A stretch of 64,000 nucleotides of DNA from an uncultured Spirochaetota bacterium (GCA_963745235.1 CAVUXE010000075.1:30283-94282); one strand, 5' to 3'. Counted from the first letter of the stretch, positions 44,777 through 64,000 are shown. Made by a program: numbers and translations. The notes: generated by a model not told the origin, from the letters alone.

Positions 44777-44798
44777 CCGGGATTGCAACGGGGGACGC

Positions 44799-46304: not shown

Positions 46305-46393
46305 TGACGCAAGGTGCCCGGGGGATGTAGGCGATTTCTCCACACGACAGTATAATGCCGCAACCCGCATTACTGCTGTTGGAGGGAGATCAC

Positions 46394-47206
46394 ATGCCGG
46401 AAGGTCCGAAGTATCACATCATGTTCCGTACCACGGAGGGCGTCCGCGGAGTGCCCCGTCCATTCGGGTTGGACATGCGAACGGTGATCAAGGTTTGCTT
46501 CCTGAGCCTGCATGAGGCGGTGAAACCGTTCCCTCACGCAATCCATGTGCTGGGGGACAGGCTTTCAGAGGACCTGAAGACCTTCTTCCAGCGCCTTGCG
46601 GATCGGGACGCGGCAGTCAAGATCCACCTGGAGGACTGCGACAGCGGCGAATCCATCCGGCAATCTCTTTCACTGGCGCTGGCAGTTCCTGACGGGGACT
46701 GGGTGTACTTCCTCGAAGACGATTATCTGCATCGACCGGAGGCATTTGTCTGGATCGATGAGCTGGTCAGAAACAAGGCGGAGGTGCTCCGCTTTGAACC
46801 GGGCCGCTGGTTCATGAAGCGCCTGTTCCGCAACGCCAACGAGGCACCGCTCATCATCCATCCGGCCGACTATCCCGACCGCTACCACCCGATCAAGCGC
46901 CAGTTCAGCCTGCTGTACATCACTCGTCTCAACCACTGGCGGCAGATCAGCAGCACGACGCACACCTTCATGGCGGAAGCCGGCACTATCCGTCGATACG
47001 AGAAAGTCATTCGTCGGTCCTCGAAACCCCCCCGGGACTTTTACCTCAGCCGTCACATGTACAGCCACATCTTCTTCCGGGGACGGGGCCTGTGCCTTTC
47101 CCCGATCCCGGGCGTGGCGACTCACATGACCGAAGGCGTGATGACCCCGCTGGTGGATTGGGAAAGCCTGCTTCGAGAGACGCTCGCAAAGGTCAAAGAG
47201 CTCTAA
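46394..47206 (+). CDS. Glycosyltransferase-like hypothetical protein (GT-A type)
   Basis: VYFLEDDYLH acidic motif, SPIPGVATH. Confidence 0.55.
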   Translation: MPEGPKYHIMFRTTEGVRGVPRPFGLDMRTVIKVCFLSLHEAVKPFPHAIHVLGDRLSEDLKTFFQRLADRDAAVKIHLEDCDSGESIRQSLSLALAVPDGDWVYFLEDDYLHRPEAFVWIDELVRNKAEVLRFEPGRWFMKRLFRNANEAPLIIHPADYPDRYHPIKRQFSLLYITRLNHWRQISSTTHTFMAEAGTIRRYEKVIRRSSKPPRDFYLSRHMYSHIFFRGRGLCLSPIPGVATHMTEGVMTPLVDWESLLRETLAKVKEL

Positions 47207-47221: not shown

Positions 47222-48085
47222 TCACGCCAGCGCCTCTTCCAGTGCCTTCCTCATGACGTCCTTGTTCGGCGTGAGCCCGGTCCACATGGTGATGTTCAAA
47301 GCTGCCTGGTTGATCAACATCTGCATGCCGCTCTGCCAGCGCAACCCCCGGCTGTCGGCCTCCCGCAGAAAGGGAGTGAACGCCGGGTTGGGGATGACAT
47401 CCTGGACATACACGTTCCTGCCGATCGTGTCATAGTCGATGTTCGGCTTGTCGTTGACGTTCGGGTAGAGGCCGATGGAGGTAGCGTTGACAAGGATGTC
47501 GGTCCTGGCCGGGACCTTGAACGTGTCCACCCAGGGAACATAGTCGACCTGGACATTGGCGTTCTTCGCGAGGGTCTTCACCAGCGCCTCACCCAAGGCT
47601 GCATCTTTGGGGATATTCACGATGGTCAGGTGCCGGGCGCCGGCCAGGGACAATTCCACGCAGATGGCCCGCGCGGCACCGCCGGCGCCAAGCACCACGA
47701 CATTCTTCCCCTTTGCTTCCACCCCCGCGCTTTCAAGGGCGATCATGAAGCCCTTGCCATCGGTATTCTCGCCGGTCAGGATCCCATTGTCGTTGATGAT
47801 GGTATTGACCGCGCCTATCTGTTGGGCGCTGGGCGACAGCTTATCGATGAATTTCAACACCTCGATCTTGTGTGGAATCGTGCAATTGATGCCCCGGAAC
47901 TTCATTGCCTTGAGGCCGAGTATCGCGTCGCCGAGCCTGCCTGGATCCACATCGATGGTCAGAAAATGCCAGTGCTGCAGCCCCAGGTCGCGAAACGCAG
48001 CTTCCTGGATGACCACGCCCGGGTTTTCGGCCGCAGGATGCCCGAACACGCCCACCAGGTTGTCCAGATAATTCTGCTCTTTCAT
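47222..48085 (-). CDS. Shikimate dehydrogenase-family oxidoreductase
   Basis: NCTIPHK, GAVNT, ENTDG, GAGGAARA, VNATSIG, MLINQA. Confidence 0.85.
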   Translation of the reverse strand: MKEQNYLDNLVGVFGHPAAENPGVVIQEAAFRDLGLQHWHFLTIDVDPGRLGDAILGLKAMKFRGINCTIPHKIEVLKFIDKLSPSAQQIGAVNTIINDNGILTGENTDGKGFMIALESAGVEAKGKNVVVLGAGGAARAICVELSLAGARHLTIVNIPKDAALGEALVKTLAKNANVQVDYVPWVDTFKVPARTDILVNATSIGLYPNVNDKPNIDYDTIGRNVYVQDVIPNPAFTPFLREADSRGLRWQSGMQMLINQAALNITMWTGLTPNKDVMRKALEEALA

Positions 48086-49917
48086 GCCTCACTCCAGTTG
48101 TTTGCGAAGTACACGGCGCCCACCGCCTGGGCGAACTGAGCGACGGTCAGCTCTGGATGCCGCTCCAACTGTTTCATGAGCGACGTGTTCGCCATGCCGG
48201 TCCCGGCCACGACCAGGGAAATGCCGGGATCGACGCTCCGCGCTCCCTCCACCAGCAAGTCGAAACAGGTCTGGTTCTTCACGAGGCGCCCGAACAGGAA
48301 CCGCTTGTCCGTGCCGGGCGCAAGGATGCGCCGCGTCTCGAGCAGCGTCACCGCCAGGGACTTGCCGATCTCACGCCAGATCTTGTAGTTGGTCTGGTCC
48401 CTCTCCCGGTCAGGGAGCCTCATCATGTGCTCCAGGAACGGCTTCCTCTGATCAACAGACCCGGTCGGGACATACCAGCCTTCCTGCGTGCCCTCCGCGC
48501 GCTGCTCGACATATCCCCTTTCAACCAGCTCATGGAACAGGTCGGGGCGTTCGGTGGGGAAGTACTTGAGGGCAAGGCGGAATATGCCGCTCTGGCTGCA
48601 GTACTTCTGCAGCGTCCCCGGCAGGCCCGTGTTGAAATTGTTGACGCTGCGCACGTCGTCGGCGCCATAGGCGCGCTCCGGCCAGCTGCCAAGGTCAATG
48701 ATGAAGTTGTAGACCTCCAGCGGGATGTCCGGGATGACCCCCGTCTCCGTCACCCAGCCGGTGCCGAGCTCCGTCCCGAGCGTATGGGCGAAGACCCCCT
48801 TGGCGACGTCGGCGGCGTCAAGCGAGGCGGCAATCTCCACCGCCGCGGTGAACGAGGCCATGGGCCCGTCGTTGATTATCCGGACCGCGCCGCCGGGCCG
48901 CACCCACGCCTGCAGGCGGATATCCAGGTCGGTGAGCTCAGCGAGATCCGATTCGTAGTCGATGGCAGGGTTGCTGCGGATACCGCGGGTCTTGTAGACC
49001 TCTCCTCCGACAATCTTGTTCTTCACCACGACATCCGGGAAACAGAGCCCGATTCCATCAAAGCGCGGCTCCTCATGGAGCCCCTCGGCCTCGAGGCTGG
49101 ACAGCACCTGAGACATCTCCGTGTCCCCCACGCCACCATGCAGGGCATGCGCCACGCGCCCAAGCAATTCCCGTCTCCGTCCGTCTCTCTCCGGCATGCG
49201 ATGAAGCCACAACCGGGCCTGGAGCAGCCGGACGATCAGGCAGATGGGATCAACCAATTGCCGCGAGCGCAGGAAGCCGGCTGGGAACCAGTCGTATTCC
49301 ACGCAATCGATCAGGCGGCCGTCATCCACAAGGACGGCCTTGATGTCGGTTCCCCCCACGTCAACGCCAAGGAGCGCCTTGTTCGAGAGGTGCTCCGTCC
49401 GACTCCTGAAAGAGTTGACGACATCCACTTGCGGATTTGGAGGCCGATGCTCCAGCGGCGCCTGCCCGAAATCGCCGAATCGGAAGGAAAATGCCGCGCC
49501 GGAGGGAATCATCACGTTGATCATACGCTCGATGACATTCACCGCCCGGCCGTAGCCGCAACGCGACGAACGCCTCATGCCGAGCCCGAAGACCGAGGGA
49601 AGCCTCCTGACCGCTTCGGCGAGTGAGGCCCGCGCGGGGTCGAAGTAGACCGTCATGAGCTTTCCGCCGAGAGCGGAGAGGATGTTGTAGATCTCCGCAT
49701 GGATGTAGCTTTCGACGAAGCCCCGTTCCGCGGCGCCCATGGCGTCGAGGCGAGGCACCCTCATGTCAAAGCGCCGGGATCCGGTTCCATCCAGGAGCTC
49801 CACGACGCAGGCCAAGCGCTCACTCGCTTCGTCCGCCAGGCTCCCGAACAGGGAGTGCAGGTCGGTGATGTAAACGCTTTGACCCGCCTTCGCTGCCTCC
49901 ATGAGCTCCCCGGTCAC
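48082..49917 (-). CDS. Large ROK/hexokinase-fold protein, copy 1 (putative sugar kinase)
   Basis: GVDVGGTDIK, IINDG, TLGTELGTG; ~180 aa N-terminal extension. Confidence 0.65.
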   Translation of the reverse strand: MTGELMEAAKAGQSVYITDLHSLFGSLADEASERLACVVELLDGTGSRRFDMRVPRLDAMGAAERGFVESYIHAEIYNILSALGGKLMTVYFDPARASLAEAVRRLPSVFGLGMRRSSRCGYGRAVNVIERMINVMIPSGAAFSFRFGDFGQAPLEHRPPNPQVDVVNSFRSRTEHLSNKALLGVDVGGTDIKAVLVDDGRLIDCVEYDWFPAGFLRSRQLVDPICLIVRLLQARLWLHRMPERDGRRRELLGRVAHALHGGVGDTEMSQVLSSLEAEGLHEEPRFDGIGLCFPDVVVKNKIVGGEVYKTRGIRSNPAIDYESDLAELTDLDIRLQAWVRPGGAVRIINDGPMASFTAAVEIAASLDAADVAKGVFAHTLGTELGTGWVTETGVIPDIPLEVYNFIIDLGSWPERAYGADDVRSVNNFNTGLPGTLQKYCSQSGIFRLALKYFPTERPDLFHELVERGYVEQRAEGTQEGWYVPTGSVDQRKPFLEHMMRLPDRERDQTNYKIWREIGKSLAVTLLETRRILAPGTDKRFLFGRLVKNQTCFDLLVEGARSVDPGISLVVAGTGMANTSLMKQLERHPELTVAQFAQAVGAVYFANNWSEA

Positions 49918-49918
49918 A

Positions 49919-50857
49919 CTACCTCCCGGCGGTGTTGGAGCGCTTGTGCTCCCTGACCACGGACAAACCCTCGGACTCCAGGATTTTCTGGAGCGCCGCG
50001 ATTTCGCTCTCCGACAAGGGCGCCATTCCGTCGAAGAACTCCGTGCTCCTGTTCATCAGCTCGTACTTGTTCATGGCAAGCGGATTGAAGTTCAGCAGCT
50101 CGACGCTTCCAGCAGCGTTTTCCTCCCCGATGAATCGCGCCAATGCCCCGATGTTCGATTCCGTCGCGGTTATCCGGGGTATCAGGGGAATCCGCGTCAG
50201 GAGCTGCACGCCACTGCGCGCCAGCCTGGCGTAGTTGCGCCAGATCTGCTCATTCGGGCTGTGGGTATATTCCCGGTGCAGCGCGCTGTCCGCCAGCTTG
50301 AGGTCGACAATGAACAGATCGGTCCAGGGGATGAATCGCTCGACAATCTCGTAGTCGCCGAAAAGGCAGGTCTCAATGGCCGTATGGACCTCCTCCTTCT
50401 TGCAGAGACCGAGCAGCTCGATGGCGAACTCATGCTGGACCAGGGGATCTCCGCCCGAAATGGTGATCCCGCCGCCGGACTGGCGATAAAACTCGACGTC
50501 TCGCAGCAGCGTTTCCGCGGCGGCCGCAGCGGAAATCATCTTCCCATCAAAGGACAGGGCTGTCGTCGGGCAGGCGGCCACGCAGGCGCCGCATGACGTG
50601 CAACTGGCCCTGTTGATCCGGACGAACGGATGGTTCTCCTCGTCATAGCGCAACGCGCCGTACGGACAGCTGGACGCGCACAAGCGGCACTGGATGCACT
50701 GCTTTTCCAGGTACCACAGGCTGATGCGGGCTTCCAATCCCTCCGGGTTCTGGCACCAGGCGCACCGAAGGCCGCAGCCCTTCAGGAAAAGGGTGGAGCG
50801 GATGCCGTATCCGTCGTGCAGGGTGAAACGCTTGATGTCGATGATGGCCCCGTCCAT
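49919..50857 (-). CDS. Glycyl-radical enzyme activase, copy 1
   Basis: [25 protein letters not shown], two CxxCxxCxxxC ferredoxin motifs, GGITISGG. Confidence 0.93.
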   Translation of the reverse strand: MDGAIIDIKRFTLHDGYGIRSTLFLKGCGLRCAWCQNPEGLEARISLWYLEKQCIQCRLCASSCPYGALRYDEENHPFVRINRASCTSCGACVAACPTTALSFDGKMISAAAAAETLLRDVEFYRQSGGGITISGGDPLVQHEFAIELLGLCKKEEVHTAIETCLFGDYEIVERFIPWTDLFIVDLKLADSALHREYTHSPNEQIWRNYARLARSGVQLLTRIPLIPRITATESNIGALARFIGEENAAGSVELLNFNPLAMNKYELMNRSTEFFDGMAPLSESEIAALQKILESEGLSVVREHKRSNTAGR

Positions 50858-53211
50858 CAGGTGTCCCCATAGCTCGTGCGCGCTATTATCTCGTCCTGCA
50901 GATCGTTCGCCAGCTCGGTGAAGTATGCGGTGTAGCCGGCCACCCGGACGGTCAAGCCCCGCCAGGCCTCCGGATGGCACTTTGCCGCAAGCAGGTCCTC
51001 CTTGCGGATCACGTTGAACTGGACGTGGTTGATCCGCAGCCTGACGAAAGTCCGCAGGAGGCTCGCGAACTTTGCGATTCCCTCCTCCGTCCTGAAGAAC
51101 TCGGGAAGGAATTTCATGTTGAGCAGCGTGCCGTTGCTTCCGTCCCCCGAATGGATCTTCGACACCGAGCGAAGAAGCGCCGTCGGGCCGGTCCTGTCCC
51201 GGCCGTACATCGCGGACATGCCTCCGTCCGCCAGCGGGTCCCTCGCCTTCCGCCCGTCCAGAGAAGCGCCGACATTCTGCCCCATGGGCACGTGGGCGGA
51301 CACGGTGTAGAGGCCGGCATGGTAGGGGCCCCCGCGCGCATTCGTGTATCCGGCCATCTTCCCGGCGAAATAGCCGACCCACCTGGCCGGGATCTCGTCC
51401 ACCCAATCCACGTCGTTGCCGTATTTCGGGACCTTGTTGATGAGATACTGTCGCAGCGCCTCATTGCCTGCGTAGTCGCTTCGGATGGCGGCAAGAGCGT
51501 CCTCAGCCGTCAAGGTGTGGTCGACATAGATGCATTGCTTTATTGCAGCGAGGCAATCCGCGACGTTGGCCGGCTGGATGGCCTGTATCCCGGACAGGTT
51601 GTAGCGTGCTCCGCCCGCCGTCACGTCGAGGCCCTTCTCCGCGCAGCCTTCAATCACCGCCGAAAGGAACGGGGATGGAAGCACCTCCGCGTGCAGCCTC
51701 TCAACCGTGTCGCAGGCCTTGATCATGCGCTCGATGAAATGGTCCATCTGCGCGCGGAAAGCGGTCTCCAACTCTTCGTAGCTCTTGTAGTCGGCGAGCG
51801 AGCCGAGATCCAGCCCCATGCGCTTCCCGCTCAACAGGCACCTGCCGTTGTTGATGGTGAGCTCCAGGGCCTTGACCATGTTGAACATGGCCGCGTCGCT
51901 CCAGCCCAGGGCGTTTCCGTGCGTCGTCAGCTCGACGCAACCGACGATCGCGTAGTCAAGCGCGTCCTGGCGAGATATGCCCCGTGCCAATAGGGCGGGA
52001 ATGATGCTTTCGTCGTTGAACACTTGCGGCATCCCGGACCCCAGGCCGATGACCCGGGCGCACTCCCGGACAAACTCTTCCGAGGACTTCTCCGAGAGGC
52101 GGGCCGACAGGTTGGGCTGCGGAAGTCCTATGTGGGCTTGCGCCTCGAGGAACAGGTAGGACAGCTCGTTCGACGCGTCTTCACCCTTTTCGTCGAGGCC
52201 GCCAATGGCGACGTTGAAGCCGATAGGGAAGCCAGCGAAATATTTCGCGCTGTTGGAGTTGCGGAGATAGACGATCTGGTTGAACTTGAGCCAGAGCGCT
52301 TCAACGATCTCCAGCGCGGCCGTCCTGTCCAGGGTCCCTTTCTCCAGGTCGGCCTTGTAATACCTGGAGAGATACTGGTCCGCCCGCCCTGGAGAGAACG
52401 AAGAGGCGTTGGATTCCGCATGCAGGAGCACGAACAGGAACCAGAGGGACTGCACGGCCTCGCGGAAGGTGGATGGCGGCTCGACCGACAGCTTCAGGCA
52501 GATGCGTGCTATCTCTTCCAGATTCGCCCTGTTTTCGGGGGAAGCCTCATCCGCGGCCATCCGGCGGGCGAGGGAGGCGTATCGTCCCATGAAGTCCAGG
52601 GCGCCTTCGAGTGCAATCGCCATGCCGCGGTAGAAATCCCGGGATGCCGGCGCCGCCCGCCCCGCCCTCTCCAACACGTCGTCACGGATGGCGCGGGGCC
52701 CCCGGGACAGCCAGTCCCTCGAGCTCGGGCATATGTGGCCTTGCGAGTGGTCGGTCTGGTTGATTTTCGCCACCGTGCCGATGGCGGTCAGCTCGTCGCC
52801 GAGAGCGGCCTTTACCCTGTCCTCCAGCGACTTTCCTTTCCAGAAAGGCAGAATCTCGAGGCGGAACTTCTCGACATCCTCCGAACGCACCTCGAACTTG
52901 TCCTGCGGACGTTCGGGCAGGCCCTCGATCTCGGCATCCACCCAGGAGATTCCTGCCTCGGGTGAGACGACGCCCGCACGGACTCCTGCCGTGCGGTTTC
53001 CGACGATCAGCTCCAGCGGGTCTATGCATATCTCTATTCGCCGCAGAGTCTCCGCGAGAGACTCTGCGCGCTGGATGTTTCGAGGCTTGTCCGGGTTGGC
53101 CTTGTAATACTCAGTGACGATCACGGCTTGCTCGATCGAAAGGAAGCGCGGCTCATCGAGCATCCGCTGTTTCAGCGCAGAAATTCTCCCCGTGCTTGCA
53201 AGCCCGCCCAT
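50857..53211 (-). CDS. Glycyl radical enzyme, PflD-like, copy 1
   Basis: [35 protein letters not shown]. Confidence 0.92.
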   Translation of the reverse strand: MGGLASTGRISALKQRMLDEPRFLSIEQAVIVTEYYKANPDKPRNIQRAESLAETLRRIEICIDPLELIVGNRTAGVRAGVVSPEAGISWVDAEIEGLPERPQDKFEVRSEDVEKFRLEILPFWKGKSLEDRVKAALGDELTAIGTVAKINQTDHSQGHICPSSRDWLSRGPRAIRDDVLERAGRAAPASRDFYRGMAIALEGALDFMGRYASLARRMAADEASPENRANLEEIARICLKLSVEPPSTFREAVQSLWFLFVLLHAESNASSFSPGRADQYLSRYYKADLEKGTLDRTAALEIVEALWLKFNQIVYLRNSNSAKYFAGFPIGFNVAIGGLDEKGEDASNELSYLFLEAQAHIGLPQPNLSARLSEKSSEEFVRECARVIGLGSGMPQVFNDESIIPALLARGISRQDALDYAIVGCVELTTHGNALGWSDAAMFNMVKALELTINNGRCLLSGKRMGLDLGSLADYKSYEELETAFRAQMDHFIERMIKACDTVERLHAEVLPSPFLSAVIEGCAEKGLDVTAGGARYNLSGIQAIQPANVADCLAAIKQCIYVDHTLTAEDALAAIRSDYAGNEALRQYLINKVPKYGNDVDWVDEIPARWVGYFAGKMAGYTNARGGPYHAGLYTVSAHVPMGQNVGASLDGRKARDPLADGGMSAMYGRDRTGPTALLRSVSKIHSGDGSNGTLLNMKFLPEFFRTEEGIAKFASLLRTFVRLRINHVQFNVIRKEDLLAAKCHPEAWRGLTVRVAGYTAYFTELANDLQDEIIARTSYGDT

Positions 53212-53218
53212 CGTCGTG

Positions 53219-54208
53219 TCACACAAACTCACGCCTGCGCTTCTGCGCGAAGCAGTCAAGCCAGATGATCGCTACAATGACCAGACCCTTCAACAGTACC
53301 TGGTAGTAGGACCGGATGGCGAGCATGTTCATGACATTATCGAGCATGCCGAACACGAGCAGGCCGAGGCCGGACTGCGGGATCCCTCCGATACCGCCCG
53401 CAAAGGAGGTTCCCCCGACAACGACGCCGCAGTTCACCACGAGCGCGGTCAGGTCCCCGTAGATGGATGAGCCCGTATTCAACTTGGAAGAGAGAAGCAT
53501 TCCCGCCAGGCCGGCGGCGCCCCCGCTGATCACGAAGGCGATCCACTTCGTTCGGATGACCGGGATGCCCGAGTAGCGCGCCACCTCGTAGTCCCCGCCG
53601 ATGGCGTACAGGTTGCGGCCGAACTGGGTGTAGCGCATGAGCCAGAAGGCCAGGGCGAAGCAGACCACCGTGATCATCACGAGGTTGGGCACCCCGTGGA
53701 AATCCCCGTTCCCGATCATCATGAAGGCGGGATTCTTGGCGGGCACCGGATGGGCGTCGGTGAGCTGCTGGGCCACGCCGGTGAGCAGCAGGCCCATGCC
53801 GAGGGTGATGATGAACGGCTCCGTCTTCTGGTGGACGGAGAGGAATCCGTTCACGAAGCCGACCACCACGCCGAAGATCACGGCGGCGGCGATGGCAAGC
53901 TCCATGGGCATCACGTCCTGGAGCTTGATGGACAGGATGCCAGAGACCACGAGGATCCCCCCGATGGAAAGGTCGCAGCCGCCCGCAATGATGGTGAGCG
54001 TGACCCCGAAGGAGAGGATGAGAAGGATCGACGTGGAGTTGAGCATGTCGAGGAGGTTGTAGGCGGTGTAGAAATGTCTGGGGGAGAAGAGCATCACGGC
54101 CAGCATCACGATGATGGCGACGAATGCCTTCTGCCTCATGACGAACGAGTATGCCCTCGCGCCGACTCCGTTTCCCGTCACCCTCACCCCGATTGCGTTG
54201 CCTGCCAT
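53219..54208 (-). CDS. Sugar ABC transporter permease
   Basis: GGCDLSIG, PFIITLG, FGRNLYAIGG...ARYSG. Confidence 0.9.
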   Translation of the reverse strand: MAGNAIGVRVTGNGVGARAYSFVMRQKAFVAIIVMLAVMLFSPRHFYTAYNLLDMLNSTSILLILSFGVTLTIIAGGCDLSIGGILVVSGILSIKLQDVMPMELAIAAAVIFGVVVGFVNGFLSVHQKTEPFIITLGMGLLLTGVAQQLTDAHPVPAKNPAFMMIGNGDFHGVPNLVMITVVCFALAFWLMRYTQFGRNLYAIGGDYEVARYSGIPVIRTKWIAFVISGGAAGLAGMLLSSKLNTGSSIYGDLTALVVNCGVVVGGTSFAGGIGGIPQSGLGLLVFGMLDNVMNMLAIRSYYQVLLKGLVIVAIIWLDCFAQKRRREFV

Positions 54209-54219
54209 GGCCGTACCTC

Positions 54220-55212
54220 CTACACCTGCTTGCGGTTGTCGAGCCAGATCGCGAGGATCAGGATTGCGCCCTTGGTGACCACCTGCAGGTAGGTCGAGAC
54301 ACCGAGAAGGTCCAGGCAATTGGACATGAGGATGACAAGGAGCACGCCCATCACGGTGCGCAGGACGCTGCCCTTGCCGCCTTTCAGCGTCGTGCCGCCG
54401 ACGACCACCGAAAGGATGGCGTTGGTTTCGTAGCCCGCGCCGATGACGGGCGCGGCCGTGGTGATCCGGGAGAACAGGACGATGGCCCCAACCCCCGTCA
54501 TCAGGCCGCAGACCACGTAGATCACGAAAATGCTCCGCAATATCCGGATGCCGCTGAGGCGCGCGGCCGTCTTGTTGCCTCCCGTGAGGCTGATGGCCCG
54601 CCCTTCCGTCGTTTTGGTCTGGAAGATCCAAAGGAGCAGCAGCACGACAAGGAAAATCACGAACGAGACCGAGAACGGGCCCACGCTTCCGGCGCCGATC
54701 GACTCGAACATCGACTTGCTCGTCTTGATGTCCCAGAAGTGCATCGTCATGCCCCCGCTGTACAGCAGGGCAAGGGCCGAAAACACGGTGCTCATGCCGA
54801 AGGTGAGGAACAGCGCTTCGGCCTGGGTGAGAGCGCCCGAGGTCAGGATGGCGGCGGCGTTGAGCGCCCCGCATGCGGCCCCGATTACCATGCCGGTGAG
54901 GAGAGCGGGTATCTGCCCCAACGGTCCGATCAGGGAGATGGTGACCACGGCGACGAGGTTTATGATGCCGGCCACCGAGAGGTCGATGAAGCCGCCGATG
55001 ATGACGAAGGTCATGCCGAGTGAGACCATCATGAGAGGCCCGAACTGGCGCATGATGTTGGTCAGGTTCCGCGGATTGAGGAACTTGGGCTCCACGATCG
55101 CCGTGATGGTGACCAGCGCCGCGATCATCACCAGGACCAGGTAGTCCCGGAAGAAGGCCTGCGCGGCCCTTGCCACCCGGTTTCGCCCCATGTGCATCGC
55201 AATTTCTGCCAT
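54220..55212 (-). CDS. Sugar ABC transporter permease
   Basis: GFIDLSV, GGNKTAARLSG, YETNAILSVVVGG. Confidence 0.9.
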   Translation of the reverse strand: MAEIAMHMGRNRVARAAQAFFRDYLVLVMIAALVTITAIVEPKFLNPRNLTNIMRQFGPLMMVSLGMTFVIIGGFIDLSVAGIINLVAVVTISLIGPLGQIPALLTGMVIGAACGALNAAAILTSGALTQAEALFLTFGMSTVFSALALLYSGGMTMHFWDIKTSKSMFESIGAGSVGPFSVSFVIFLVVLLLLWIFQTKTTEGRAISLTGGNKTAARLSGIRILRSIFVIYVVCGLMTGVGAIVLFSRITTAAPVIGAGYETNAILSVVVGGTTLKGGKGSVLRTVMGVLLVILMSNCLDLLGVSTYLQVVTKGAILILAIWLDNRKQV

Positions 55213-55214
55213 GG

Positions 55215-56720
55215 CTATGCGGCGCCTCCCTCGAGGCCCAGCGCGGCCTTCATGATTTCGTCCACCGGGGTCTTCTCAGGGTAGAACTCCCCGGTGACCC
55301 GTCCCTCGAATATCGTCAGCACGCGGTTTGCCATGTTGAGCACCTCGGGAAGCTCCGAGGAGATGAGGATGATCGATCCTCCCGCCTCGACGATCCTTTT
55401 CATGAGGAGGTAGATCTCGTACTTGGCGCCGACGTCGATGCCCCGGGTCGGCTCGTCCATGATGAAGATCTGCGGCGAGATCTCCAGCCATCGCCCGACA
55501 ATGACTTTCTGCTGGTTGCCGCCGGAGAGGTTGTTCACGGCAACCCGGGTCGAGGGCGTCTTGATGGACAGGGCCTGGACCTGTCGCGCTCCGATGCCCT
55601 TCTCCACCGATCTGCGGATGAAGCCGAGCCGGCTGAACTTCCGGATGCTCCCCATGGAGATATTCGATTCAACGGAAAAGGGCAGGATGAGACCCTGGAG
55701 CTTGCGGTCTTCCGGGATCAGCCCGATGCCGAAATCCTTGGCATGCTTGGGGTTGCGAATGGTCGCGGGCTTGCCGCCCAGGAGGACCTCGTGTCCGCGT
55801 GCCTTGTCAGCGCCGTAGATGGCCCGGACGATCTCGGTGCGGCCCGCGCCGACCAGGCCGACAAGGCCCAGGATCTCGCCCTTGTGAAGCTTGAACGAGA
55901 TGTCGTGGAGCTTGTGGGTTTTGATGGAACGGACCTCCATCACGACCTCGCCCACGCTGTGAGGGCGGGGGGGATACTCGTTCTCTATGGTGCGGCCGAC
56001 CATCTTGGAGATCAGCTCGTTGCGCGTGAACTCGGCCACGGCCTTGGTGTCCACCACCCGTCCGTCCCGCATCACGCTCACCACGTCGCAAAACTGGAAG
56101 ATCTCGTCGAGCTTGTGGCTGATGTAGATGATCGAGATCCCCTTCTCCTTGAGCTGGCGGATGATTGTGACCAGCTCGGCCATCTCTTCCGCGGTGAGGC
56201 TCGAGCTCGGCTCGTCCATGATGATGAGCTTGGAGCTGAAGGAGAGCGCCTTGACGATCTCCACCATCTGCTTCTCCGACACGGAAAGCTCGGATACCAG
56301 CCTCGTGGTGGGCACCTTGCTGCCGATGCTGTCCAGGAGCTCCCGCGCCTTTGCGTGGGTGCCGCGCATGCCCTTCATTTCCTTGAACCGGCCGAGGAAG
56401 ACGTTCTCCCCGACGCTCATCGTGTTGACGAGGTTGAGCTCCTGGTAGATGATCGCCAGCCCGCTCTGCATGGACTGGTGCGGGGTGGTGTGCTCGACGC
56501 GCGCGCCGTCGAACTCGATCGTGCCGCTGTCCTTCTGGTAGACGCCGGACAGGATCTTCATCAACGTCGACTTGCCCGCGCCGTTTTCGCCGACGATGCC
56601 ATGCACCGTGCCGCGCCGGACGTCGATCGAGACCTTGTCCAGGGCTTTGACTCCGGGAAAGGACTTGCTCACGTCCCTGATGGACAAGATGACCTCAGAG
56701 CCGGCTGCTTCCATGGCCAC
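55215..56720 (-). CDS. Sugar ABC transporter ATP-binding protein (two NBDs)
   Basis: GENGAGKST, LSGGNQQK, DEPTRGIDVGAK. Confidence 0.95.
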   Translation of the reverse strand: MAMEAAGSEVILSIRDVSKSFPGVKALDKVSIDVRRGTVHGIVGENGAGKSTLMKILSGVYQKDSGTIEFDGARVEHTTPHQSMQSGLAIIYQELNLVNTMSVGENVFLGRFKEMKGMRGTHAKARELLDSIGSKVPTTRLVSELSVSEKQMVEIVKALSFSSKLIIMDEPSSSLTAEEMAELVTIIRQLKEKGISIIYISHKLDEIFQFCDVVSVMRDGRVVDTKAVAEFTRNELISKMVGRTIENEYPPRPHSVGEVVMEVRSIKTHKLHDISFKLHKGEILGLVGLVGAGRTEIVRAIYGADKARGHEVLLGGKPATIRNPKHAKDFGIGLIPEDRKLQGLILPFSVESNISMGSIRKFSRLGFIRRSVEKGIGARQVQALSIKTPSTRVAVNNLSGGNQQKVIVGRWLEISPQIFIMDEPTRGIDVGAKYEIYLLMKRIVEAGGSIILISSELPEVLNMANRVLTIFEGRVTGEFYPEKTPVDEIMKAALGLEGGAA

Positions 56721-56745
56721 ATCCTTGAATGAAGGTTACAGGAAC

Positions 56746-56778
56746 AAGGCTCGTCCCGCCAGAGGCGGAACGAACCTT
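56746..56778 (-). terminator. Intergenic hairpin after binding-protein gene
   Basis: Minus strand AAGGTTCGTTCCGCC-TCT-GGCGGGACGAGCCTT stem with G-U pairs. Confidence 0.6.
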
Positions 56779-56797
56779 TCAGGCTATGCTGCGGATC

Positions 56798-57746
56798 CTA
56801 CCACTCGGGCGGATCGAAGCTCGCGATGGAGCTCTTGTCGACGACGAAAAGCGGGACGTAGTTGATCTGCTTGACCTTTTTGCCGGCCAGGACGTCTCTG
56901 GCGAGCCCGAGGTCCGTCTTGGTCATGAGCACGAAGTCCTGGGCGATGCTGACCGCCTGGTCGCCGCTCTGGACCTGGTAGTAGCCGGCGCGGTTGCCGT
57001 CCACTCCGACGATGTACAGGCCCGTGATGCCCGCGGCCTTGGCCGCCTGGATCACGCCGGTTGCTCCGTTGTCCCAATGGACGAACACGCCCTGGATATC
57101 GTTGCCGTACTTCACGATGTCATCTTCCATGATGGCCTGCGCCTGGTCGGTCGCCCACTGCTGGCAGGCCTTGTAGTCGAGGACCTGGATATTCGAACCC
57201 TTGATCCCCTGGGCGCCGTTGAATCCATCGTGTCGCTTGATCTGGGCGTCGTGACCCGCCTGGCCGCCGATCTCCACGATCTTGGCGCCGTTCGGGAAGT
57301 GCCTTCTTGAATGCCTGGGCAGCCTGTTGGCCTGCCATCGTGTCGTTGACCCCCGCGTAGAAGTCACGGTACTTCTGGTTCTCCGGCGCGAGGTCCGATG
57401 AGAACATGCCCACGATCATGCCAGCCGCCTTGGCCTTGATGATGGCGGGGACGATGGCGCTGATGTCGTTCGGGTTCAGGAAAATGACCTTGAACTTCTG
57501 CGCGATGCAGTTCGTCACGATCTGCGACTCGGCCTGGGTGTCGCCCTTCGCGTCGAAGGTGTACATGTCGAAGCCGTACTGCGACCCGAACTTCAGGAAC
57601 TGCTTCGACGAGAACGCCTGCGACTCGTTGGCCGCGTTCGAGATGACGAACGCTGCCTTCACCAGCTTGGCCTGGGCGCCGACGCCAAAGGCGATCGCGA
57701 CCAGCAGGACGAGTCCAACGATCAAGACTCTCTTCATTTTTGCCAT
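56798..57746 (-). CDS. Sugar ABC transporter substrate-binding protein (frameshift near 57305)
   Basis: Signal peptide MAKMKRVLIVGLVLL, GGAGG RBS, FDAKGD, KRHDGF, VGVDG. Confidence 0.85.
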
Positions 57747-57772
57747 AGCGCACCTCCTCTTGTGTGTATTAC

Positions 57773-57838
57773 ATGAAACACCTGAGTGTTTCATACGTAA
57801 CCCCAACTGATTATGCATGTTTCTTTAGTCCTTGGCAA
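57773..57838 (-). promoter_or_regulatory. sigma70 promoter and downstream palindromic operator for ABC-GRE operon
   Basis: Minus strand TTGCCA-17nt-CATAAT (57838-57810); perfect inverted repeat ATGAAACAC-CTGA-GTGTTTCAT (57773-57794). Confidence 0.6.
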
Positions 57839-58017
57839 GATATTTTTCATTCATAATCGAGCCTCCTCCATAATTGCGTACCATTTAAGTTATCCGGTCG
57901 GAGGTGAAACGGCCATAACTATCCAATAGGTGAACAAAAGTGAACCGAAACGCTGGCCGGCGACCTTTCTCCTTTTGAGCTGCCGTGGTAATCTGCGCTC
58001 GGTGAGAGGCCGGGCGC

Positions 58018-58822
58018 ATGCCGGATGAATCGATATCAACTTTTTTGGAAAGTCTCTGCTTTGACCACGCGATTGCAAAATGGTGCGAGCGATTCGACGG
58101 CCGGAGCAGCATTTGGAACTTTCAAAGACATTCACATCCATATTTCGAGCTCATCTTCTTCATCGAGGGAAAGGCAAAAATCGACGCCGGTCATGAATCC
58201 ATCGACATCTCCCTTTTCGACGTCGTTGTCTATCCGCCCGGCCTCTCCCACCAGGAGCACCTCGATATGGACATCCCGGCAGGAGATCATCTGCATTTGG
58301 GCCGATCTGGGCCCCTGTCCTGCGTTCGATCACGCCATCAAGCTCAAAGACCTGCGGGGCACCATGCGGGAGCTCTTCGAGATCATCTATCTCGAGTTCA
58401 CCGGAAATCGCGCCTTGGCGGACGACGTAATTGCCTCCTGCCTCAAGACTCTTTTCCTTCTGATCAGGCAGGGCTGCCGCGAGCCGTCCCAGGAGAACGA
58501 TTCGCAGGTCGAACGGTGTCTCAGCTATATCCATGAGCATTTCACGGGCGACTTCGGCATCGAGACGCTCGCGCAAACGATCTCAGTGAGCTCCTCGTAC
58601 CTCTTTCGCATCTTCAAGCGAAAGATGCGCGTGACGCCCATGCACTATCGCAACCTCGTCAGGATCGACAAGGCCAAGCTTCTCCTTCTCGATCGGCGCT
58701 TCACCGTGGAGGAAATCGCCGAGCATGTCGGCTTCGACGGCGCGAGATATTTCTCCCGCGTTTTCAAGAAGGAGACGGGCTTGTCTCCGAGCGAGTTCCG
58801 CAAGAAACAGCTCGCCGGTTGA
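58018..58822 (+). CDS. AraC-family transcriptional regulator with cupin domain (frameshift near 58275)
   Basis: HSHPYFEL cupin; SSSYLFRIFK, IAEHVGF...YFSRVFKK..G.SPSEFR. Confidence 0.9.
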
Positions 58823-58934
58823 TCGCGCTTCACTTTTCTTCACCTTCTTGTCAGTTTTCTGAGTTGTTTCCTGCCCCCGATCGTGGGATACGCTGTTGAA
58901 GAAGAATGCGAGATCTTCCAGGTAAGAGGATGAT

Positions 58935-61308
58935 ATGCGTGAGTACGTTGCAGAGATAGAGCGGCTTCCGTTGAGCGGGCGCATCGAGGCGCTCAAGCGC
59001 TCCATGCTGGCCGAGCCGCGGTTCCTTTCCATTGAGCAGGCGAGGATCATCACGCGGGTGTACCGCGAGACGGAGGGGGAGCCGGTCAACATCCGCAGAG
59101 CGCGATCACTCCGCGCCTGCCTGAGCGAGATGAAGATCCGGATAGACCCGGGAGAGCTCATTGTCGGCAACCGGACGGCCGGCGTCCGTGCCGGCGTGGT
59201 GTTCCCCGAGGCCGGCGTCTCGTGGGTGGACAAGGAAATAGAGCAGCTCCCGACGCGCGAGCAGGATCGGTTCAACGTGCGCCCGGAGGACATTCGGACC
59301 TTCCGTGACGAGATCCTCCCTTACTGGTCCGGTCGCACCCTCGAGGATGCCGTCAGGAGAGAGATCGGCGAGGAGGCCGACGCCATTTCGCGCGTCGTGA
59401 AGATCAACCAGAAGGATCACGCCCAGGGCCACATCTGCCCGGACACGGAGGCGTGGCTGCGCCTCGGACCGGCCGGACTGCAGCGGGAGGCGGAGGACCG
59501 GGCCCGCACACGGGGCGATCCAGACCGTTTCTACGAAGGCGTGATTCTCAGCCTGGACGGTGCCCGCACCTTCATGCGGCGGTACGCGGCACTGGCACGA
59601 GAGCTGGCGAGCGGGCCGGCGGAGACCGCCGGTGACGAGCTTACCAGCGTGGCGCACATCTGCGACGACCTGGCCGACCGTCCCCCGCGGACGTTCCGCG
59701 AAGCCCTTCAATCGGTCTGGTTCCTGTTCGTGATCCTCCACATGGAATCCAACGCTTCCTCCTTCTCCCCGGGCCGCATGGACCAGTACCTGTACCCGTA
59801 TTTCCGGGCCGACCTGGACTCGGGCGCGCTGGACCTGCCGGGCGCCCTGGAGCTGGTATCCGCGCTGTGGCTCAAGTTCAACCAGATCGTCTACCTGCGC
59901 AATTCGCACAGCGCAAAGTACTTCGCGGGATTCCCCATCGGCTTCAATGTCGCCCTGGGCGGCCAGGACGGCGCCGGCCGGGATGCGTCGAACGAGCTCT
60001 CCTTCCTTTTCCTCAGGGCCCAGGAGCTGATCGGCCTGTCCCAGCCCAATCTCTCCGCCAGGCTGTTCGAAGGCAGCCCCGACGACCTGCTCATGGCGTG
60101 TTCGCGGGTCATTGGAAAAGGAAGCGGAATGCCGCAGGTGTTCAACGACGAGGCGGTGATTCCGGCGCTGCGGGGGGTTGGCATCACCGAGGCCGACGCG
60201 CGCAACTATGCCATCGTCGGCTGCGTGGAGTTGACGACGCACGGGAACAACCTGGGCTGGAGCGACGCGGCCATGTTCAACCTCGTCAAGGCGCTCGAGC
60301 TGACGCTGACGGGCGGCTTCTGCCTCGTGGACCGCAAGCCCCTCGGGCTGAACCTCGGGACGCTTTCCGATTTCCGCACTTTCGAGCAGCTCGAAACGGC
60401 ATTCGCACGGCAGATCGAGCACTTCACCGAGCGCATGATCCGGTGCTGCGACATCGTGGACCGGATCCATGGCGAGCTGCTGCCCACTCCGTTTCTCTCA
60501 TCCGTCATCCGTGACTGCATCGACAAGGGGATCGACGTCACGCGCGGCGGAGCCCACTACAACCTTTCGGGGATCCAGGCCATCCAGCCGGCCAACGTCG
60601 CCGACAGCCTGGCCGCCCTCAAGAAGCTGGTGTACGACGAGAAGGCGGTGACCGCGGAGGCAGTGCTGCGGGGCCATGGAAACCGATTTCGACTCCGACC
60701 AGATACTCCGGCATCGCCTCGTGAACAAGGCGCCGAAGTATGGCAACGATGTGGAGTGGGTCGACGAGCTGGCGCACAAGTGGGTGAGGGTGTTCGCGGA
60801 GGGGCTGCGGAAGTACACGAACCGCAGGGGGGGGCGGTACCATACCGGTCTGTACACGGTCTCGGCGCACGTGCCCATGGGTCAGAACGTCGGCGCGACT
60901 CCTGACGGCCGGCGGGCGCGAACGCCGCTTGCCGACGGAGGGATGTCCGCGCTGTACGGGAGGGACATGAACGGACCCACCGCGGTGCTGAAATCAGTCG
61001 CTCGGGTCGATTCGAAGCTCGGCAGCAACGGAACCCTGTTGAACCTGAAATTCTCTCCCGAGATGTTTGCGGACGCGCGCGGATTGAAAGCCTTTTCCCA
61101 ATTCCTCCGCGGGTTCGTTCGCCTGAAGATCAGCCACGTGCAGTTCAATGTCCTGAACGAAGCGGACTTGAGGGCCGCGCGCGAGAACCCCGACCAGTAC
61201 CGGAACCTCACCGTGCGGGTCGCCGGATACACCGCCTACTATACCGAGCTGGCGGCTGACCTGCAGGAGGAGATCATCGCGCGCACGACTCATGCCTTGT
61301 CGTCATGA
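58935..61308 (+). CDS. Glycyl radical enzyme, PflD-like, copy 2 (frameshift near 60672)
   Basis: [35 protein letters not shown]. Confidence 0.9.
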
Positions 61309-62236
61309 CCACCGGCTGGGTGTTCGACTGCAAACGGTTCTCCATCCACGATGGGCAGGGCCTGCGGAGCACGCTTTTTCTCAAGGGATGCCCCCTGCGG
61401 TGCCCCTGGTGCCACAATCCGGAGGGCATGGTCCCCGGGCAGCGGCTGTTCCATAGCAGCCGCGAGGTGCATCGGCTGCGGAACGTGCCTCCACGCCTGT
61501 CCGGAGTCGGCGCTGTCCGCAGCCGATTCGGCCCGCGATGTCCGTATTGACGAGACGCGGTGCACCAAGTGCGGCAGATGCATAGACGCATGCCCGACCG
61601 GCGCAATGGCATTCGATGCGCGGGAGATGAGCTCGGAGCAGGCGATCGCCGAGCTGCTCCGCGACCAGACCTTCTTCGAGGTATCCTCGGGGGGAGTGAC
61701 GTTGAGCGGGGGCGAGCCGCTCCTGCAGCCTGAGTTTGCCATCGAAGTGCTCGATGGCTGCCGGCGGAGGGGAGTCAGGCACCGCCATCGAGACGTGTCT
61801 GGCCGCGCCGCTGCAGCACGTCGAGGCGATGGCTCGGGTGACGGATGAGGTGTTCGTCGATATCAAGCTCGCCGACGAGCGCCAGCACCGGGAATTGCTG
61901 GGGTGGCCCCTCGAACCCATACTCCGGAACCTCCAGTACCTGGTCCGTGTCCGCGCGAATGTCGTTGTGAGGATACCGCTCATTCCGGGATTCACGGCGA
62001 CTGAATCCAACCTGAAAGGAATAGGGCGAATTGTCGCCGGCCTTGAACGGCAGCCTCCCGTGGAGTTGTTGAACTTCAATCCCTTCGCGGAAGCGAAGTA
62101 CCGGCGCCTCGGGCGGACCTGGGCGTTTGCCGAGGGTTCACGGCGCTATTCGCCGCAGGAGCTGGCGGCGTTCAGGCAGGTGCTGCGGAGCGCCGGAGTG
62201 GAAAGGGTTTTGGATGAGCAGGAAGAGCCTGGTTGA
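61305..62236 (+). CDS. Glycyl-radical enzyme activase, copy 2 (frameshifts near 61460 and 61780)
   Basis: [21 protein letters not shown]...C and CTKCGRC...[10 protein letters not shown]. Confidence 0.88.
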
Positions 62237-64000
62237 ACGAATTGATTCCTTCCTTGAAGCCGCATCGAGCGGGCGGCCGGTGTACATCACCGATGTCAGC
62301 GACCTCCTGGATGGTCATCCCGATGCAGTCCCGGTCCGACTGAAGCTGCGCTCGGCAGACCGGCCGGAGGCCCGGGAGTTCACCCTTTTCCTGCCGCGGC
62401 CTGATGCTGCCAGCGCGGATCAGTCAGCGTTCATACGCAGATATCTGGAGGCGCGGGTCTATAACATCCTCTCGACCTACGGAGGCAGGTCGCTGACGTT
62501 CTACCGGCCCGCTGCTGAAAAGGGCATCACGGCCCTCTTGTCGACGCTCGACGACAGCTTCGGCATCGGCGTGGCCAAGAAACGCCGCCAGGGATACGGG
62601 CGATGCCTCAACGTTGCGGAACGGATGACCGACGCGCTGGACGGGGCGACAACGCCGACGGCGTCGTTCCGTTTCACTAATCGAGGATGTCGATCTTGCA
62701 CCGCCTTCGCCATCCCCGGCAGCGCCTTTCTCCGGGCCGCCGCTCAGCGCCAGGCTGAAAGAAATACCCGGCCGCCTGGCGGGAGCTTCGGCAATCGGGA
62801 TGGATATCGGAGGAACCGATATCAAGCTGATCGCGTGTGTCGACGAGCGCATCGTCGGATACAAGGAATACGATTGGTTCCCCGCCCGGTTCACGGAATC
62901 CCGTCAGCTCGTTGACCCCATCGTTCTCCTTGTACGGTGGGGGCGGGCGCGCGCCGCGGTAGAGCGCATCGCCTCGGCAGAGCGGCGCGCAGCCCTCTCG
63001 TCCCGTCTCGATTCGGTGGCACGTGCCGGGGCGCGCGAAGAGGAGATCAGGACTGCGGTGGAGAAGGTGGAAACGCACCTCGGTCCCGATCTGGCGGGGC
63101 TGGACGCCATCGGCATGTGTTTTCCCGATGTCGTGGTTCGAAACAAGATCGTGGGAGGCGAGGTGTACAAGACGAGGGGGATCAGAGGCAACCCCGCCAT
63201 CGACTTCGAATCCGATTTCGCCCAGATCACGAACCTCGACCGAGAGCTTTCAGCCTTCTGCCGCCCCGGGGGGAGGTTCAGGAATATCAACGACGGACCC
63301 ATGGCGGCATTCACGGCAGCGCTCGAGGGGGCTGTTTCGGGACAGCGGAATGCCGACGACGGGATCATCGCCTTTACACTGGGGACCGAGCTGGGCACGG
63401 GATGGATCGACCCGGCCGGACACCTGCCGGAGATCCCCCTCGAGGTCTACAACTACATCATCGATCTCGGCAGTCTCCCCGAGCGGGGATTCGGCGCGGA
63501 CGATCCGCGAAGCATCAACAACTTCAACACCGGGCTTGCCGGCACAGTTCAGAAGTACGTGTGCCAGAGCGGCGTCTTCCGTCTGGCGCTCAAGTATTTC
63601 AGCAAGAACAGGCCCGATCTGTATGACAAGGTCTTCAGGGATGGCTATCTTGCCCTGAAGGACGGGACGATATCCATTGCCGACCGAGCCCCGGGACATG
63701 CGAAAGCCATTGCTCGAGTTCCTCATGCGCCTTGCGGCAGGAGGGAGCGATGAAACGATCCGCGACGTCTTTCGGGAAATCGGCGAGTATCTTGCCGTGA
63801 CGTGTCGGGAAACGAAGCAGATACTCGGAATGCGCGTCATGCGTCCCGGTCCTGTTCGGTCGGGTCGTGAAGGACCCCGCGTGCATGGCACTCATCCGGG
63901 AGGGCGCCGCGCGCGTTTCCCCTGACCTCGTCATCGAGGTCGCTGACGACGACCTGGCGGCAACGGGCCTCATGCGTCAACTGCGCGATGATGGCCGCTA
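62214..64000 (+). CDS. Large ROK/hexokinase-fold protein, copy 2 (frameshifts; runs off window)
   Basis: VYITD, DIGGTDIK, EYDWFPA, CFPDVVV.NKIVGGEVYKTRGIR, INDGPMA, TLGTELGTG shared with copy 1. Confidence 0.65.

Follow-up and report, generated by a model that had tools for sequence, protein, structure and literature searches.

We analysed a 64,000-nucleotide stretch of DNA from an uncultured Spirochaetota bacterium (GCA_963745235.1 CAVUXE010000075.1:30283-94282; hereafter, the window). Its last part, from position 47222, encodes two triplets of a glycyl radical enzyme (GRE), its activating enzyme (activase) and a kinase, denoted left (GRE_L, KIN_L) and right (GRE_R, KIN_R), together with an ATP-binding cassette (ABC) transporter and an oxidoreductase of the shikimate dehydrogenase (SDH) family. 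The operon is real and represents a variant, widespread though patchy, of a pathway described in 2024. We consider it fairly probable that it encodes a PflD branch of anhydroglycolysis independent of the phosphotransferase system (PTS), predicted to run from 1,5-anhydrofructose through 1,5-anhydromannitol and its 6-phosphate to 1-deoxyfructose-6-phosphate.

In the proposed route, the CUT2 ABC transporter would import 1,5-anhydro-D-fructose and/or 1,5-anhydro-D-mannitol. The oxidoreductase, which resembles 5-ketofructose reductase (KFR), would reduce the C2 ketone of 1,5-anhydrofructose to give 1,5-anhydromannitol, probably with NADH; stereochemistry points to this substrate. The kinase, for which a ROK fold and catalytic residues were observed, would phosphorylate O6 with ATP. 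The activase would install the glycyl radical on the oxygen-sensitive GRE, in which Cys426 would abstract the C2 hydrogen, Glu428 would deprotonate the C2 hydroxyl, and the C1-O ring bond would break to yield 1-deoxyfructose-6-phosphate. This reaction is proposed as for PflD, whose ring opening of anhydromannitol-6-phosphate to 1-deoxyfructose-6-phosphate is described, with its mechanism, in the available part of PMC13450708. An enzyme encoded outside the locus would cleave the product, and divergent transaldolase-family proteins are the first candidates.

The radical enzyme, its kinase and its dehydrogenase

We collected 60 loci by a kinase-seeded scan with one genome per species, in which flanks reached at most 10 kb and many were shorter; the loci are mutually related, so counts do not represent independent events. 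In two betaproteobacterial loci (L019 and L049), the GRE slot was filled by a true PflD, 69–70% identical to E. coli PflD and scoring 1176 bits against the PflD structure 8yjo. The operon order was kept, a PflC-type activase was present and a GMC oxidoreductase gene was inserted; identities to the window were 60–65% for the monosaccharide-binding protein (SBP), 72–73% for the ATPase, 69–78% for the permeases, 62–63% for the kinase and 76–77% for the SDH-family enzyme. The same activase and GMC gene were found in L022, where the GRE lay beyond the contig. In kinase and SDH trees, which omit four rows (two duplicates and both loci of the window itself), the PflD-linked copies nested in groups tied to the window GRE clade, with SH-like support of 100 and 99, respectively (all trees were made using FastTree, with SH-like support and midpoint roots). 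Moreover, twelve kinase pocket positions were identical among L-type, R-type and PflD-linked copies. These sequence comparisons indicate that a window-type GRE was displaced in place by PflD, in one event, and that PflD is fed by the same transporter and kinase. The first-pass annotation had proposed a substrate different from that of PflD; the swap, the shared kinase pocket and a dehydrogenase pointing to the manno configuration speak against this. The substrate is probably that of PflD, mainly because PflD was exchanged into an otherwise orthologous operon.

The GRE motifs had been read correctly from the sequence. Both enzymes contain a single-Cys GCVE loop, DH(S/A)QGH and GCVELTTHG, as well as RVAGY, and the motifs given there for E. 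coli PflD, DKGQGH and GCVELSIPG, match its real sequence. The best solved matches of GRE_L were the PflD structures 8yjo and 8id0 (~620 bits), followed by glycerol dehydratase at 551 bits; its identity to PflD was 42%. GRE_L matched PF02901 and PF01228, scored 761.7 bits with TIGR01774 (cutoff, 678.2) and adjoins an activase exceeding the TIGR02494 cutoff, as in GREs of the eliminase/isomerase type. It is not a pyruvate formate-lyase, having GCVE instead of Cys-Cys and 147 bits with TIGR01255 (cutoff, 994), nor a member of YbiW, to which it was 34–37% identical, with other motifs and a separate clade. No YbiW ortholog was found in the window genome.

In a 98-row tree (68 full-length representatives chosen among the best 79 of 150 matches, 25 rows from the loci, and 5 from the window, its genome and E. 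coli), GRE_L and GRE_R fell into one 20-row clade (support 100), outside a 3-row PflD clade (support 100). P0244, a GRE 46% identical to both PflD and GRE_L, and P0247 branched between these clades; support for the joint group was 89, or 98 with P0293 included. The window GREs form a sister clade of PflD, outside PflD by membership, yet with PflD as their closest likeness. Among 114 homologs of at least 760 residues (out of 119), N148, Q149, D151, Q154, H156, ESNASS, R311, S315, F319, F322, C419, E421, D433, Q523, Y617, T618, S620 and H622 (PflD numbering) were kept in 113–114. Key motif residues were the same in GRE_L and GRE_R, small changes such as T154 to K aside. Two further GREs were observed. 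One, at 43–44%, adjoins a Gfo/Idh/MocA-like gene without a kinase (L098, in G324). The other is the third GRE of the window genome (G000:C84:85449-87434), which has a GCLE loop, RVTGY and its own activase; it was rejected as a relative of this system on its ~30% identity to GRE_L, PflD and YbiW and its long branch.

The 60 loci came from Spirochaetota, Bacillota, Planctomycetota, Chloroflexota and Betaproteobacteria. A window-clade GRE was present in 43, counting L039, where the match was partial (51%) and 9.4 kb distant; two others had true PflD, and no GRE was seen in 9 gut-clostridial loci or in the short upstream DNA of 6. Of the 50 loci for which upstream DNA reached 1.5 kb or more, 39 had a window-clade GRE no farther than 3.5 kb from the kinase, and a further 2 had true PflD. 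The first-pass annotation had named kinases not conserved beside homologous GREs as a finding that would tell against it; the kinase is kept there. Its proposal that ABC import and a cytoplasmic kinase replace the PTS is likewise supported by this linkage and by the lack of an FrwC-like PTS EIIC in all 60 loci. Accessory genes included those for the SDH-family enzyme (32 loci), a window-type SBP (25), a GMC oxidoreductase (7) and a second ROK kinase (12).

YbiW, at 52–60% identity to the E. coli protein, was encoded in 9 of the 60 loci and lay near the module in G303, G314 and G331. A side cluster of Gfo/Idh/MocA, AlsE-like 3-epimerase, ROK kinase, DeoR and, except in L093, GMC oxidoreductase genes was seen in L005, L031, L039, L093 and L094; it frequently adjoins YbiW and may serve to interconvert epimers of anhydro-sugars. 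In L019, L022, L023 and L049, the betaproteobacterial operon was followed by a gene for a YbiU homolog (Gig2-like, 43–45% to the E. coli protein); this links YbiU, an uncharacterised product of the ybiW operon, to anhydro-sugar use. In the complete 2.8-Mb genome G250 (L064, G250:C1:1294000-1314000), the order was kinase-activase-GRE-AraC, with a different SBP type and no KFR-type SDH; its neighbourhood presumably resembles an alpha-mannosidase cluster.

KIN_L had no Pfam or NCBIfam match at E <= 0.001, and at least 1169 homologs were found among 8000 scored candidates. Residues 176–611 of its predicted model (predicted local distance difference test score (pLDDT), 91.7) matched ROK kinases with Z of ~20 (range 16–21). 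Comparison with 2hoe gave Z 20.9 and a root-mean-square deviation of 3.2 over 289 aligned residues, and Foldseek matched 2qm1 at E 7.8e-11. ROK residues were mapped by motif, the alignments listed residue by residue spanning only D186–T382. On this mapping, D186, T190, N349, D350, T382 and E401 were invariant in 114 of 114 sequences; they are counterparts of the NagK catalytic residues D6, T10, N104, D105, T132 and E154 (bioRxiv 2021.09.30.462564, available part). KIN_L lacks the ROK markers at family level: PF00480 was unmatched, no Cys cluster was conserved and Asn stood at the mapped zinc-His position. What the first-pass annotation called an unusual kinase is thus, by its predicted model, a sugar kinase of the ROK/hexokinase fold, though no family model matches it, and sugar phosphorylation is predicted. 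By motif spacing, not alignment, Asn404 and Gln437 stand at the positions of NagK His157 and Asp187, which we take to bind the anomeric OH in ROK glucokinases; these replacements would suit a 1-deoxy sugar.

The N-terminal 175 residues of the kinase (window 49378-49917, minus strand) folded confidently alone (pLDDT 89), with conserved AEIYN and GYGR motifs and invariant N78, N127 and R131. The best fold match of this domain was Z 4.7 and Foldseek gave none at E <= 0.001, which does not show a new fold. No longer fused form was seen among 7998 candidates in a weak search, no kinase match was found in plasmids, and matches in the ESM Atlas were to hypothetical-protein and ROK clusters only. Of 301 genomes in the window's phylum, 2 carried the kinase, one of them its own; around G369 (401 genomes) and G363 (301), the centre genome alone did. 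These searches missed known carriers and undercount.

A distant kinase clade at 36–38% identity was present, with no GRE beside it, in gut Oscillospiraceae, Lachnospiraceae and Clostridiales (L053–L061). Its neighbours were a sugar-phosphate/iron-type ABC transporter, a two-component pair and a HAD phosphatase, with D-lyxose isomerase and PfkB in four loci. Eight gut-clade sequences differed at five of the twelve pocket positions, two of them to Arg. Of five gut genomes with the distant kinase, four had no GRE match and the fifth one of only 30–32%. Because the gut genomes tested hold no close GRE, the gut-clade kinase appears to do something else, possibly in a separate mannose- or fructose-phosphate-related pathway.

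The best PDB match of the SDH-family enzyme was the 5-ketofructose reductase 7cok (218.6 bits); the next scored 181.1 bits, and all shikimate dehydrogenases listed scored at or below this value. The enzyme also passed the AroE model TIGR00507 (215.9 against 200.2 bits). In AroE, Ser-x-Ser and Tyr bind the shikimate carboxylate; here, ENPG replaces HSxS and DVIPNP replaces DLIYNP. Among close homologs, 33 of 34 have NPG and all 33 that span the other motif have DVIPNP, and a separate AroE-like homolog with HSLS and DLVY is encoded on contig C58 of the window genome. With KFR as its closest match and the NP and DVIPNP motifs, the enzyme can be assigned on sequence to the KFR subgroup. In its cofactor loop, NIPKD, the Arg found in loops of the NADPH type is absent, pointing to NADH as the cofactor.

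D-mannitol renumbered from the other end has the C3–C5 configuration of fructose, whereas D-glucitol does not match. Therefore, 1,5-anhydro-D-mannitol corresponds to fructopyranose, and 1,5-anhydro-D-fructose to 5-ketofructopyranose, each minus the anomeric OH. By analogy, a KFR-type enzyme acting on 1,5-anhydrofructose would yield the manno product needed by PflD. In the available parts of the sources, the SDH-related KFR of Tatumella (TM-KFR) forms D-fructose (PMC7954740), and fungal and red-algal glucan lyases produce 1,5-anhydrofructose (PMC12441222). With its gene in 32 of 60 loci, the SDH-family enzyme is dispensable, as would be expected of a step that feeds the pathway: G250 and G361 had SDH matches at AroE level only (31%), and two Gfo/Idh/MocA-type genes followed the kinase in its place in L046. 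A second KFR-like SDH-family gene (47%, AENP and DVIPNP) is located at G000:C59:10661-11494, with a similar gene in G315. An HbpS-like (PF03928) gene was observed in 11 of 60 loci, mostly directly 3' of the SDH gene (L006, L014, L016, L019, L022, L023, L030, L036, L038, L040 and L049).

The aldolase step and competing pathways

In the published pathway, 1-deoxyfructose-6-phosphate is cleaved by aldolases (PMC13450708 and PMC12441222, available parts). Domain searches of the locus genes confirmed the earlier statement that no aldolase is encoded there. This and several other results weigh against the proposed pathway. A fructose-6-phosphate aldolase (FSA)-type enzyme was found in none of the 60 loci, and none of 10 carrier genomes reached the TIGR00875 cutoff. 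Five matches to the transaldolase (TAL)/FSA family were found in the window genome, two of which derive from a single broken gene; in the three intact TAL-family proteins, the tyrosine of FSA is missing. The complete genome G250, with GRE, activase and kinase, had zero TAL/FSA-family matches. GRE_L fell below the cutoff of the PflD equivalog NF007437 (734 against 1109 bits), and ten changes from PflD were fixed in 114 of 114 homologs (K152H, L267F, L309Y, T324I, Y326F, Y429L, L431W, H432S, G526Q and S616L). The PflD swap was one event with the GRE in view at 2 loci, and the GMC oxidoreductase arrived with PflD, so the substrate may have shifted. Comparison of the intact SBP ortholog of L002 with ribose/polyol-type SBPs gave weak matches (at most 78.5 bits) and no ligand hint. 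Finally, TM-KFR attacked none of the other compounds tested, 1,5-anhydrofructose not being among those named in the available part of PMC7954740.

Either another enzyme handles the GRE product or the product differs. In G363, the PflD carrier of L019, a Gln/Tyr FSA-like gene is located elsewhere in the genome. A transaldolase gene near the kinase in L046 was rejected as the missing step, as it belongs to another operon. In L050 (15525-17296), genes for a split transketolase and a TRAP transporter come after that of the GRE and may offer a route for a 1-deoxy-ketose phosphate.

Because FSA is missing, a pathway of the same logic with another sugar or product stays alive, which we judge unlikely. 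The GRE would then open or dehydrate a similar pyranose phosphate: an epimer, a C-substituted anhydrohexitol or fructopyranose-1-phosphate, for example. In the last of these variants, 6-deoxy-5-ketofructose-1-phosphate would be formed and split by ordinary fructose-bisphosphate aldolase, which would explain why FSA is found neither in the loci nor in G250. The fixed pocket differences agree with such a change, including K152H, four residues before a conserved His, at a position where IslA, by spacing, has a sulfonate-binding Arg (PMC13450708, available part). An AlsE-like 3-epimerase, a GMC oxidoreductase, Gfo/Idh/MocA proteins and a second ROK kinase are encoded nearby in 3, 7, 6 and 12 loci, respectively; however, in the loci read, the epimerase, GMC and ROK genes mostly stand in a separate run, often beside YbiW. 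In addition, the kinase pocket is that of the PflD-linked copies, true PflD occurs in the same operon, and fructose enters glycolysis without a radical step. Also doubtful, though somewhat less so, is the reading that the GRE clade is a new radical sugar-phosphate lyase and that its product, or the route downstream, makes FSA aldolase unnecessary. If so, the locus would represent an undescribed anaerobic sugar pathway with an unassigned GRE, a ROK-fold kinase family and a KFR-type reductase, and the missing step would best be sought in G250, which has GRE and kinase but lacks any match to the transaldolase family.

It is quite improbable that the kinase or dehydrogenase follows the GRE in the pathway, with 1-deoxyfructose-6-phosphate as one conceivable substrate, or that the kinase N-terminal domain supplies the missing step. 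The gene order GRE-activase-kinase-SDH, a kinase tied more tightly to the GRE than the transporter is, the N-terminal domain with its invariant residues and no fold match, and the GRE-less clade beside a sugar-phosphate-type ABC transporter, HAD phosphatase, lyxose isomerase and PfkB would agree with this. However, all ROK catalytic residues are invariant, the core operon has no other kinase or PTS, the SDH gene is absent in several carriers and hence not obligatory downstream, and the pocket of the gut clade differs.

Twin triplets and the state of the assembly

All genes claimed by the first-pass annotation were present at the positions it gave, in a left operon on the minus strand and a right-hand run on the plus strand (Table 1). 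The two triplets point in opposite directions, as it had described; the AraC gene, which it placed as a separate central gene, is the first gene of the right-hand run.

Table 1. Features of the two modules in window coordinates
Feature	Position	Strand	Basis or remark
SDH-family oxidoreductase, 5-ketofructose reductase type (predicted function)	47222..48085	-	Best PDB match 7cok
KIN_L, ROK/hexokinase-fold sugar kinase, 611 aa, extra N-terminal domain of ~175 aa	48082..49917	-	
GRE activating enzyme, radical SAM with ferredoxin insert, intact	49919..50857	-	TIGR02494, 198 bits against cutoff 174; Pfam Radical_SAM, Fer4
GRE_L, PflD-sister clade, intact	50857..53211 (open frame to 53259)	-	PDB matches, tree, motifs
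ABC permease A	53219..54241	-	PF02653; its stop is the end of colinearity with G315 and G303
ABC permease B	54220..55212	-	PF02653
ABC ATPase, two-domain monosaccharide (CUT2) type	55215..56720	-	PF00005, two stretches
SBP, frame-broken	56798..57746	-	PF13407 in two frames
Candidate sigma-70-like promoter of left operon	57810..57838	-	TTGCCA-17-CATAAT, 10/12
AraC-family regulator, cupin sensor domain, one extra base	58018..58822	+	Cupin/AraC_binding and HTH_18, two frames
GRE_R, clade of GRE_L, one extra base	58935..61308	+	92–96% to intact genes of G302, G303 and G315
Activase_R, two extra bases	61305..62236	+	
KIN_R, three extra bases, cut by contig end	62238..64000 (start approximate)	+	36–55% to KIN_L in four pieces

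The promoter pattern occurred at 2 sites against 2.3 expected by chance, and position is the sole support for the candidate. The C-terminal part of AraC was 90–93% identical to those of G303 and G315.

The GREs of the two triplets were 62–63% and the kinases 36–55% identical, so the triplets do not stem from a recent duplication. Each was closer to single-copy genes elsewhere: GRE_R as listed in Table 1, and GRE_L at 83–85% to L002, L005 and L007. In G315 and G303, the SDH, permease, ATPase and SBP genes are followed by AraC, GRE_R, activase and kinase, with one triplet only, and in G314 a similar transporter leads straight into an L-type triplet. The window was colinear with G315 at 93.6% nucleotide identity from 53219 to its end. 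Left of the permease A stop, where G315 has the SDH gene alone, it carries an L002-type GRE_L-activase-kinase-SDH run (78% nucleotide identity). This permease A-GRE_L junction is real, as it is bridged by contigs of the soil and peat metagenome runs X1, X2 and X3 and by locus L101. Among 24 other family genomes, seven had one kinase copy and none had two, and the earlier view of twin modules as a designed feature is not borne out.

We give about an even chance to a real but redundant cassette insertion, in which an L-type GRE-activase-kinase-SDH cassette would have taken the place of the SDH gene, next to the permease A stop, in a G315/G303-type backbone and both triplets would do the same job. 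Somewhat less probably, the contig joins two strains through near-identical transporter genes, and no cell has both triplets. The lack of two kinase copies in the 24 genomes would then follow, as would the occurrence of each half alone in the genus, and a genome contamination of 5.87% and eight extra bases in the last 6.7 kb of the contig, with none in coding DNA of 53.2–57.3 kb, point the same way. However, identity to G315 remains ~93–97% through the transporter, SBP, spacer and AraC with no step, frame breaks also occur in UvrD and UvrB and, by a codon model with some false calls, at ~3–5 per 10 kb on six contigs, and two other assemblies contain two kinase loci on separate contigs (L028 and L034; L002 and L004). 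Very unlikely are co-regulated modules for two different sugars served by one importer. The GRE (62%) and kinase (36–55%) identities would permit such divergence; however, either triplet alone pairs with nearly the same transporter (R-type in G315 and G303, L-type in G314), the two GREs, like the two kinases, agree in their key residues, and a second activity beside the module is usually YbiW.

Near-identical pieces of the left operon were present in soil and peat metagenome runs of four studies (X1–X4). X1, X2 and X4 had near-identical contigs over 46–57.5 kb, and depth over 58–64 kb was mostly 0–2 (at most 4.7, in one X2 bin); among the matches listed, long pieces of X3 were ~91–93% identical. 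The thin cover of 58–64 kb fits strains without the right module, absence of cover not being evidence. Among the matches listed, the SBP-AraC-GRE_R join is neither spanned nor contradicted by any contig. When metagenomes were scanned for the permease-GRE junction pattern, the one contig recovered was L101, which has no bearing on the twin arrangement; it departs from the locus at 55571, inside the ATPase, into a different ABC operon (L101:3256-6051), as a misassembly or an ATPase recombinant. The duplication is in itself of minor importance.

Contig C75, whose final 64 kb make up the window, belongs to a 5.85-Mb draft genome (completeness 85.7%, contamination 5.87%); its closest named relatives are uncultured Spirochaetia. 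The contig end at 64000 cuts KIN_R near residue 585 of 611. Reading frames are intact in the left operon from SDH through ATPase. Relative to the colinear same-genus G315, the window had eight single extra bases, in the SBP (~57302), AraC (58274), GRE_R (60674), activase_R (61455 and 61775) and kinase_R (62677, 63683 and 63848). The SBP base was absent from G315 and from contigs of X1, X3 and X4, and a related X3 contig lacked five of the right-hand insertions; the eight are probably assembly errors. Genes for UvrD, a nucleoside phosphorylase, UvrB and a DegP-like protease (window 6500-8495, 13293-14122, 30930-32922 and 32934-34155) were each split over two frames, and these split housekeeping genes show that the assembly is prone to indel errors genome-wide. 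A codon model called ~3–5 frame breaks per 10 kb across six contigs, some calls being false; junctions of overlapping genes are also flagged. In four RNA runs, only 0.05–0.07 of words were present.

Upstream, a separate monosaccharide ABC operon (42580-46304) is divergent from genes for a sigma-54 response regulator, an ABC-ATPase-like sensor and a histidine kinase (39177-42586, with frame breaks); it was rejected as part of the system, G315 giving only short cross-matches to its ABC genes. An orphan open reading frame (46355-47206, plus strand), convergent with the SDH gene, had no Pfam match and had Atlas neighbours resembling family-2 glycosyltransferases; it was rejected as part of the operon, having no match in the 60 loci.

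Relation to known systems

Literature searches listed no publication on this operon, kinase or GRE clade, and Ma et al. (2024) or its supplement may already mention ABC or kinase variants. If the proposed pathway is correct, an ABC-and-kinase version starting from 1,5-anhydrofructose operates in anaerobes from peat, wetland and sediment that belong to several phyla. This would suggest functions for a kinase family of at least 1169 members with no Pfam model, for a new SDH-family 1,5-anhydrofructose reductase and for an unnamed GRE clade, and would pose the question of how 1-deoxyfructose-6-phosphate is used without FSA. Anhydroglycolysis using the PTS is described in gut bacteria (PMC12441222, available part).

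The E. coli PflD system has the closest solved GRE, which shares the CxE loop, ESNASS, YTVSAH and RVAGY with the window GRE, and PflD takes the same slot in L019 and L049. Ma et al. reportedly described it in 2024 as PflD/PflC with the Frw PTS, PtsA, FsaB and GldA, forming the 1,5-anhydromannitol branch of anhydroglycolysis. In contrast, the window GRE is 42% identical with ten fixed changes near motifs, an ABC transporter and a kinase stand in for the PTS, a KFR-type reductase is added, and the locus lacks FSA and GldA. E. coli YbiW/YbiY (with FsaA, YbiV and YbiU), the 1,5-anhydroglucitol branch, belongs to the same chemistry class. KIN_L has the fold and the Asp, Thr, Asn-Asp and Glu motifs of ROK kinases such as NagK, NanK, Streptomyces glucokinase and polyphosphate glucomannokinase; unlike these, it has GTELG for GTGIG and no zinc Cys/His motif, with 12–22% identity in structural alignments. 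The SDH-family enzyme shares the NP of the first substrate loop and DVIPNP with 7COK/Tatumella TM-KFR, whereas it stands in an anaerobic GRE context and its predicted substrate has no anomeric OH. The 1,5-anhydro-D-fructose reductase of Sinorhizobium morelense is a member of the Gfo/Idh/MocA family, not of the SDH family. The first step predicted here is that of the S. morelense pathway, in which 1,5-anhydrofructose is reduced to 1,5-anhydromannitol, which is then hydroxylated aerobically at C1 to mannose (PMC12441222, available part).

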